NCBI RefSeq assembly: GCF_964204645.1
Contig: NC_134028.1
Coordinates: forward strand, 11,889,263 to 11,953,262
DNA length: 64,000 nucleotides
Direction: 5' to 3'
DNA from: Tubulanus polymorphus
Lineage: Eukaryota > Animalia > Nemertea
The first letter of the stretch is position 1. Every line of letters begins with the position of its first letter. Under the pieces are notes generated by a model. The model did not search any database and was not told where the DNA came from. It worked only from the letters and a program-made list of their open reading frames with translations. Both the position numbers and the translations under genes were made by a program. Shown one piece after another: positions 30,401 through 30,927 of this stretch.

Positions 30401-30927
30401 TTACAAACATATCCTAAATTTATTGGTAACAGAATATTTGATAAAAATTTAGCTGCAGTAAAAATGAGAAGAACTTCTATGAAATTTAATAAACCAATTT
30501 ATGTTGGTGCATCAGTTCTAGAAATATCAAAATTATTAATGTATGAATTTTACTATAACGTATTACAACCTCATTTTGGAGAAAAGCATATAGAAATCTT
30601 ATATTTTGATACTGACAGTTACATATTAAAGATAAAAACTAATAACATAACAGATGATTTAAAAACATTAAAACATCATTTTGATTTCAGTAACTATCCA
30701 AAAGGTCATGAATTGTTTAGCAATGATAATAAAAAGGTGCCAGGTAAATTCAAAGATGAATTAGGTGGTGAGGAAATGATAGAATTTATAGGTATTATAT
30801 CTAAAATGTATTCATATAAAACCAAAACTCATGAAGCTAAAAAATTGAAAGGTATAACAAAAAGTGTAGTAGAAAAGAATATTCATTTTAAAGATTACAT
30901 CAATTGTATATTTAATGAAAACGTTAG

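Follow-up and report, generated by a model that had tools for sequence, protein, structure and literature searches.

Inteins of eukaryotes are known from fungi, protists and algae and from their viruses. In family B DNA polymerases, inteins at the Pol-c position (site III) are described, in the accessible parts of two reports (PMC549080; PMC1635734), from Mimivirus PolB, HaV01 PolB and archaeal polymerases of the Pol-2 type. Inteins have also been found in endogenous polymerases of giant-virus type, and homing between paralogues has been reported for Anaeramoeba, as set out in the available text of PMC10710043. The words "Polinton", "metazoa" and "animal" do not occur in the main text of that paper, nor do six related terms in two of its supplement files. 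In nematode Polintons, modules of the protein-primed family B polymerase (pPolB) are exchanged while the other genes stay similar, according to the accessible part of Jeong et al. (10.1101/2023.08.22.554363), in which the word "intein" has no occurrence. The available part of Krupovic et al. (PMC11161782) contains a one-sentence suggestion that endonuclease inserts of pPolBs derive from inteins. In the searchable literature, to which most subscription papers and bioRxiv supplements do not belong, no Polinton pPolB turned up for which a LAGLIDADG intein at motif C had been described.

A complete, endonuclease-bearing intein in a multi-copy transposon-virus would mean that a nuclear genome, probably that of an animal, is a site of protein splicing and homing. 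Where one genome contains occupied and empty targets next to altered ones, the homing cycle and the resistance to it would become countable from sequence. Since homing needs two elements per nucleus, it also bears on Polintons meeting and recombining as free replicating DNA.

In this study, we analyse a pPolB intein and an empty target for it in one window (the whole stretch of DNA under analysis, 64,000 nucleotides). A single empty site such as the one flagged in a preliminary description is ordinary; what matters is the system around it. We consider it rather probable that no intein ever invaded the flagged site, that both copies are alike there because it is the active site, and that the intein acts as a working homing element among close, co-replicating Polintons.

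Polinton copies and their polymerase modules

The window contains three related Polinton segments in repeat-rich eukaryotic DNA. Target-site duplications of Polintons are 6 bp long, and copy 1 (7864..24320, reverse strand) is a complete Polinton with terminal inverted repeats (7864-7987 and 24228-24320) and the duplication AACGCT on each side. Its flanks (7385-7564 and 24321-24753) have stretches in common at 96-100% identity, and from these like flanks copy 1 looks as if it had been inserted into a repeated host element.

The pPolB of copy 1 (19172..24235, reverse strand) is an uninterrupted, intein-bearing gene of 1687 aa, here called type A. Its identity as a protein-primed PolB was established via its nearest relatives, which carry PF03175, a direct Pfam match being absent. 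After it lies a 431-aa ORF with a U1-type zinc finger (17880..19175, forward strand). On the reverse strand follow a likely double jelly-roll major capsid protein (11441..12688), a retroviral-type integrase with chromodomain (10283..11410; PF00665, E 2.5e-10) and an A32-like packaging ATPase (9674..10282; PF04665, E 3.5e-13). The capsid assignment is a lead from features of the protein, with unnamed clusters ranking first in the searches; its homologue in copy 2 gives a weak Capsid_N match. An adenovirus-type protease had no match in copy 1 in Pfam or PHROGs. Short repeats based on an 11-bp unit and 117-bp duplications adjoin the ATPase gene in all three copies (9412-9700, 43174-43350 and 51745-51950).

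Copy 2 is composite. The main part of its pPolB (27459..30911, forward strand), here called type B, is an intein-free pseudogene with at least five frame changes and with 15 stops in the codon alignment, some of them at misaligned ends. A C-terminal piece (31809..31953, forward strand) lies beyond an insertion of ~0.9 kb, by which the last 48 codons have been displaced to 31809-31952. With 72-81% nucleotide identity to copy 1 and saturated synonymous sites, copy 2 is no close sister of copy 1 at pPolB, and the gene is dead. Downstream, an older segment (32345..36376, forward strand) is 84-93% identical to copy 1 in its coding parts, with a synonymous difference of 0.06-0.18, and a younger segment without a pPolB of its own (36376..44155, forward strand), which ends in the terminal repeat, is mostly 91-99% identical, with a synonymous difference of 0.005-0.13. 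Copy 2 is thus a join of an older and a younger segment at 36376; no matching target duplication was found at its right end. Judged from sequence, its pPolB is an old separate lineage, whereas the capsid and integrase genes to which it is joined are almost the same as in copy 1.

In a pPolB tree that includes metagenome loci, L041 is the partner of copy 1, and L038-L040 fall together with copy 2 (support 1.0). All four of these loci are intein-free, and a search for the intein in 42 loci (L038-L079) gave no match. The 431-aa zinc-finger ORF is present in L041 as well and has no homologue in copy 2. The type-B counterpart after pPolB is a short unrelated frame (32073-32336), which recurs at 54109-54303. 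We infer that a common structural module has been combined with either of two pPolB modules of old origin, of which A includes the 431-aa ORF and B does not, much as in the nematode Polintons of Jeong et al. The third copy (49354-54303) is deleted; its integrase and ATPase are 96-99% identical to those of copy 1 and its other end consists of copy-2-type pieces, a further sign of module mixing.

Further repeats surround these copies. A 188-bp element (24716-24903) with the Polinton-like ends AGTAAT...ATTACT encloses an 18S rRNA fragment of ~100 bp (E 3e-14 to the Rfam SSU clan), and a sibling at ~7526-7668 has the same ends and another filler; a plasmid search with the 18S rRNA fragment returned one unannotated record. 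A signature in this fragment and the repeat landscape suggest that the host is an animal. An array of 8-bp tandem repeats with strong strand skew occupies 694-2100, and an LTR retrotransposon remnant with zinc knuckle and aspartyl protease lies at 61757-62448. Pfam searches on 43 ORFs of the flanks gave LTR gag and protease remnants and nothing else that pointed to the host.

The intein of copy 1 and the empty target of copy 2

The intein of copy 1 comprises 355 aa (19628..20692, reverse strand) and lies in frame between YFD and TDS of the polymerase. Its splicing residues are Ser1, a block-B TEDH (T83-H86), N355 and a Thr at +1. Of the traits of a class 1 Pol-c intein, the insertion in motif C, residue 1, block B, the terminal Asn and the +1 residue are present. 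TIGR01445 scores above its cut-off and PF14890 just below. The penultimate residue is Lys, not the His that was looked for; a penultimate His is not obligatory in inteins, and Lys is found in several relatives too (L001, L002, L009, P0004 and P0259). Two LAGLIDADG motifs, GFFMGDG and GFYAADG, contain the acidic residues D150 and D262; in an alignment of 30 relatives, these two and the block-D lysine K237 each reach a conservation of at least 90%.

In the predicted structure (pLDDT 89) the LAGLIDADG helices span residues 136-150 and 248-262. The top PDB match is the TliVMA intein with its homing endonuclease (E 2.6e-18), PI-PkoII, PI-PfuI, PI-SceI and I-DmoI are matched as well, and the best viral matches (BFVD) are PolBs of phycodnaviruses, Pandoravirus, Marseillevirus, Megavirus and HaV01. 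The model is that of a putatively complete two-domain intein. By its residues and motifs, the insert is an intein of the giant-virus Pol-c type with apparently intact splicing and LAGLIDADG motifs, for which self-splicing and the cleavage of motif-C sites that lack an intein are predicted. The intein is matched by 267 stored proteins, 12 of which match the copy-1 extein too; the junction YGD...TDS was found in 150 of 166 parsed junctions among stored relatives. In a viral contig collection there were 37 matches, 26-62% identical to it.

The empty target in copy 2 lies at 30599..30625 on the forward strand, 9.9 kb from the insert of copy 1, close to the ~10 kb given in the preliminary description. 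As described there, positions 30578-30640 read GEKHIEILYFD/TDSYILKIKT with the break at 30610/30611, and the junction agrees with copy 1: over 12 bp upstream and 15 bp downstream the 27 bp are identical to the joined flanks of the occupied gene. The reported rise in protein similarity was likewise recovered, at ~0.95 around the site vs 0.57 at codons 98-500; in windows of 40 codons, identity is 0.95 from codons 1150 and 1170 and 0.90 from codon 1190. No scar was found at the copy-2 site, which is intact despite long decay beside an occupied allele. Relatives of the copy-2 site were searched for in the viral contig collection, and none was found.

A co-conversion tract had been offered as one source of this local similarity, with a flat course of sliding-window synonymous divergence named beforehand as the result that would speak against it. 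This proposal is not supported: the divergence is flat across the site. Among the codons for the same amino acid, 237 of 703 (0.337) differ between the copies, the expectation at saturation, obtained from random draws from the common codon usage of both copies, being 0.346. At the site the difference is 0.28-0.35 vs 0.34 overall (22/79 at codons 1141-1230, 16/55, 12/37 and 7/20 at codons 1172-1191; Fisher p 0.15-0.65), and 33% of 1094 windows are as low. Nine identical codons, as seen across the junction, were reached in 12% of simulations. The other source that had been offered, active-site conservation, is borne out by intein-free pPolBs from other samples, which give the same protein peak: at codons 1150-1210, identity is 0.93 between copies 1 and 2 and 0.85-0.95 in the nine pairs that intein-free P0122-P0124 form among themselves and with the two copies. 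The peak being no higher than in these controls, it is likely explained by active-site conservation. Recent co-conversion between copies 1 and 2 is ruled out by the saturated, flat synonymous divergence together with the control peak.

Occupied, empty and altered alleles in reads and relatives

That occupied and empty alleles coexist, as the preliminary description had supposed, holds both within the window and species-wide in reads. The sample was one raw DNA run, of which ~12% was read. Mean depth was 183 for the intein, 216 for the ORF confined to type A and 296 for the N-extein; the intein thus stands at 0.85 of the type-A-only ORF and at 0.62 of the exteins. Since the depth of the intein is near that of the type-A-only ORF, most type-A copies are likely to bear the intein. 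No joint that precisely skips it was found among the best 15 of 48 read joints. Fitting the copy-1 C-extein, 172 reads then continue as copy-2-type sequence. In a second run, the empty junction is crossed by three contigs, so that empty alleles are common. A compensated one-base shift inside the intein is present in 32 of 178 reads. The 21 classed read variants, with 3 of the 6 intein variants and 7 of the 15 extein variants synonymous, give no usable test of selection.

Over the polymerases the intein is scattered. Six inteins from pPolBs were placed in a tree of 46 sequences together with the 40 best inteins of PolBs that have a YGD junction, and there they make up a single clade with local support 1.0; the pPolB around one of the six (P0004) is so distant that it does not match the copy-1 extein. 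In an extein tree of 33 sequences, the six occupied tips are spread over five places, with empty relatives between them. FastTree was used for both trees, as a quick run on chosen rows. Among the extein relatives listed, only 3 of 120 have the intein. One intein clade on scattered extein positions suggests repeated homing. One pPolB fragment (P0259) carries an intein 75% identical to that of copy 1 with a TDA C-extein, so that a TDA motif would be compatible with an occupied allele.

Occupied and empty alleles lie side by side in one cluster of relatives (the P0003 cluster, P0240-P0253, with relatives among P0122-P0239). Of its 136 members 15 were listed, comprising seven occupied alleles, six precisely empty ones and two fragments that were left out. 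Among these 13 alleles, the difference between occupied and empty ones is 1.5 per 100 aa over most of the protein, rising to 9 per 100 aa just before the site and 19 just after it. In 1191 columns there are ten fixed differences between the listed occupied and empty alleles, every one of them at aa 1035-1040 or 1391-1431, the flank window having been picked after the data were seen. Because more distant empty relatives have the empty flank, it is the occupied flank that looks imported; no donor was found for it. In 69 intein-free relatives at least 70% like P0003, the catalytic motif is CDS in 29, TDS in 20 and TDA in 6, the other 14 being unaligned or different.

A second patch separates two empty loci, L039 and L040. 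Over 5124 bases they have 22 differences, and 15 of these lie within -43..+9 of the target (p ~7e-22 for clustering within ±45 bp). The loci are 99.6% identical over 5.1 kb, and the patch (L039 3488-3540, L040 4251-4303) changes the motif to YLD/TDA. The L039 patch is a candidate resistant allele, and both this patch and that of the P0003 cluster are what cutting and repair from another allele would leave; these outside tracts come from assemblies of multi-copy elements, in which chimeras are possible. On the intein clade, its scatter and the site-centred patches, homing among Polintons appears likely. It is not claimed for copies 1 and 2.

Explanations and comparison with known inteins

Two other histories of the copy-2 site have to be weighed. 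An old, short conversion between type A and type B, of ~30-150 bp, could have made the site core alike, which we regard as improbable. In its favour, the 27-bp run across the junction is the longest among 18 diverged pairs (the next is 23), no exact run anywhere in the alignment exceeds three (29, 28 and 27 nt) that all lie at most 90 bp from the site, and the Leu codon at -4 in copies 1 and 2 is found in no other sequence compared (p 0.03 at ±15 bp). Sites that separate the clades are depleted near the target (2 vs 7.1 expected, p 0.015-0.023; as low a value is reached in 8% of windows). Only the tree of codons 1181-1230 unites copies 1 and 2, with weak support. Yet the synonymous-only form of the clade-site test, which has little power, is without signal (p 0.25-0.37), sites common to copies 1 and 2 only are at background rate (2 of 100 flank residues vs 15 of 914), and at codons 1172-1191 seven of 20 codons differ synonymously amid flat divergence. 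Moreover, homing would have brought the intein along with its flank, and similarity is the wrong signature for it, because near the site homing sets the occupied allele apart from empty sister alleles, as in the P0003 cluster. Precise loss of the intein from the lineage of copy 2, with the donor flanks kept, would fit the junction codons, which are exactly those of copy 1, but seems very improbable: the close type-B relatives examined are all empty (P0122-P0124 and the 42 loci), the intein is rare among the listed extein relatives, and precise loss is regarded as difficult in the available text of PMC10710043.

The activity of the intein may be questioned as well. Its endonuclease could be silent, dead or blind to type-B sites in this host, the intein being near fixation in type A and riding on element replication, with an empty neighbour that is incidental. 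The read depths, the lack of a precise skip among the best joints, the intact copy-2 site and the compensated shift in part of the reads would agree with such a static coexistence. On the other side stand both LAGLIDADG acidic residues and the block-D lysine, which are kept, the complete two-domain model, the 27 bp of identical target and the site-centred tracts in relatives; we consider static coexistence unlikely.

Under the preferred reading, that of a never-invaded site and an intein homing among close Polintons, the starting point is a complete copy 1 with its in-frame intein and an intein-free, broken copy 2, saturated at pPolB and close in its structural genes. Old pPolB modules A and B would have recombined onto a common capsid-integrase module. 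Splicing through Ser1, Asn355 and Thr+1 is predicted to restore the polymerase, and the two-motif LAGLIDADG domain is predicted to cut empty sites. As in other hosts, repair from an occupied allele would copy the intein with some tens of flank bases, and repair from a divergent empty allele would leave a changed patch. Homing would then take place mostly between closely related, co-replicating elements. Copy 2 may be a substrate for cutting and would be a poor recipient for homing at ~25% flank divergence. Since its site is unscarred and type-B elements are still multi-copy, cutting in the chromosome would be rare at best. More tentatively, and as a possibility that we would not yet back, a giant-virus-type intein may act as an endonuclease drive that is active in animal nuclear genomes with their many Polinton copies, where it would convert close sisters, select changed target patches in the survivors and help to drive the exchange of polymerase modules between subfamilies.

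With the known Pol-c inteins, the intein of copy 1 has in common the position in motif C (YGD/TDS there, YFD/TDS here), Ser1, the terminal Asn, Thr at +1, and a LAGLIDADG domain in ~350 aa. Unlike them, it is hosted by the protein-primed PolB of an integrating, multi-copy Polinton, belongs to a clade of pPolB inteins of their own, has a penultimate Lys and finds its targets in paralogous copies within one nuclear genome. Like the pPolBs in the accessible parts of Jeong et al. and Krupovic et al., that of copy 1 contains a predicted nuclease and belongs to a module that has probably been swapped; the inserts treated there are HNH or VSR, whereas here a complete splicing domain and a LAGLIDADG domain sit at the catalytic motif, with empty alleles at hand. 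The cases in the available text of PMC10710043 are likewise virus-derived inteins in nuclear DNA with homing between paralogues. Their hosts are giant-virus-type polymerases of algae and of a labyrinthulomycete or the cellular genes of a protist, whereas the host here is the polymerase of a Polinton.
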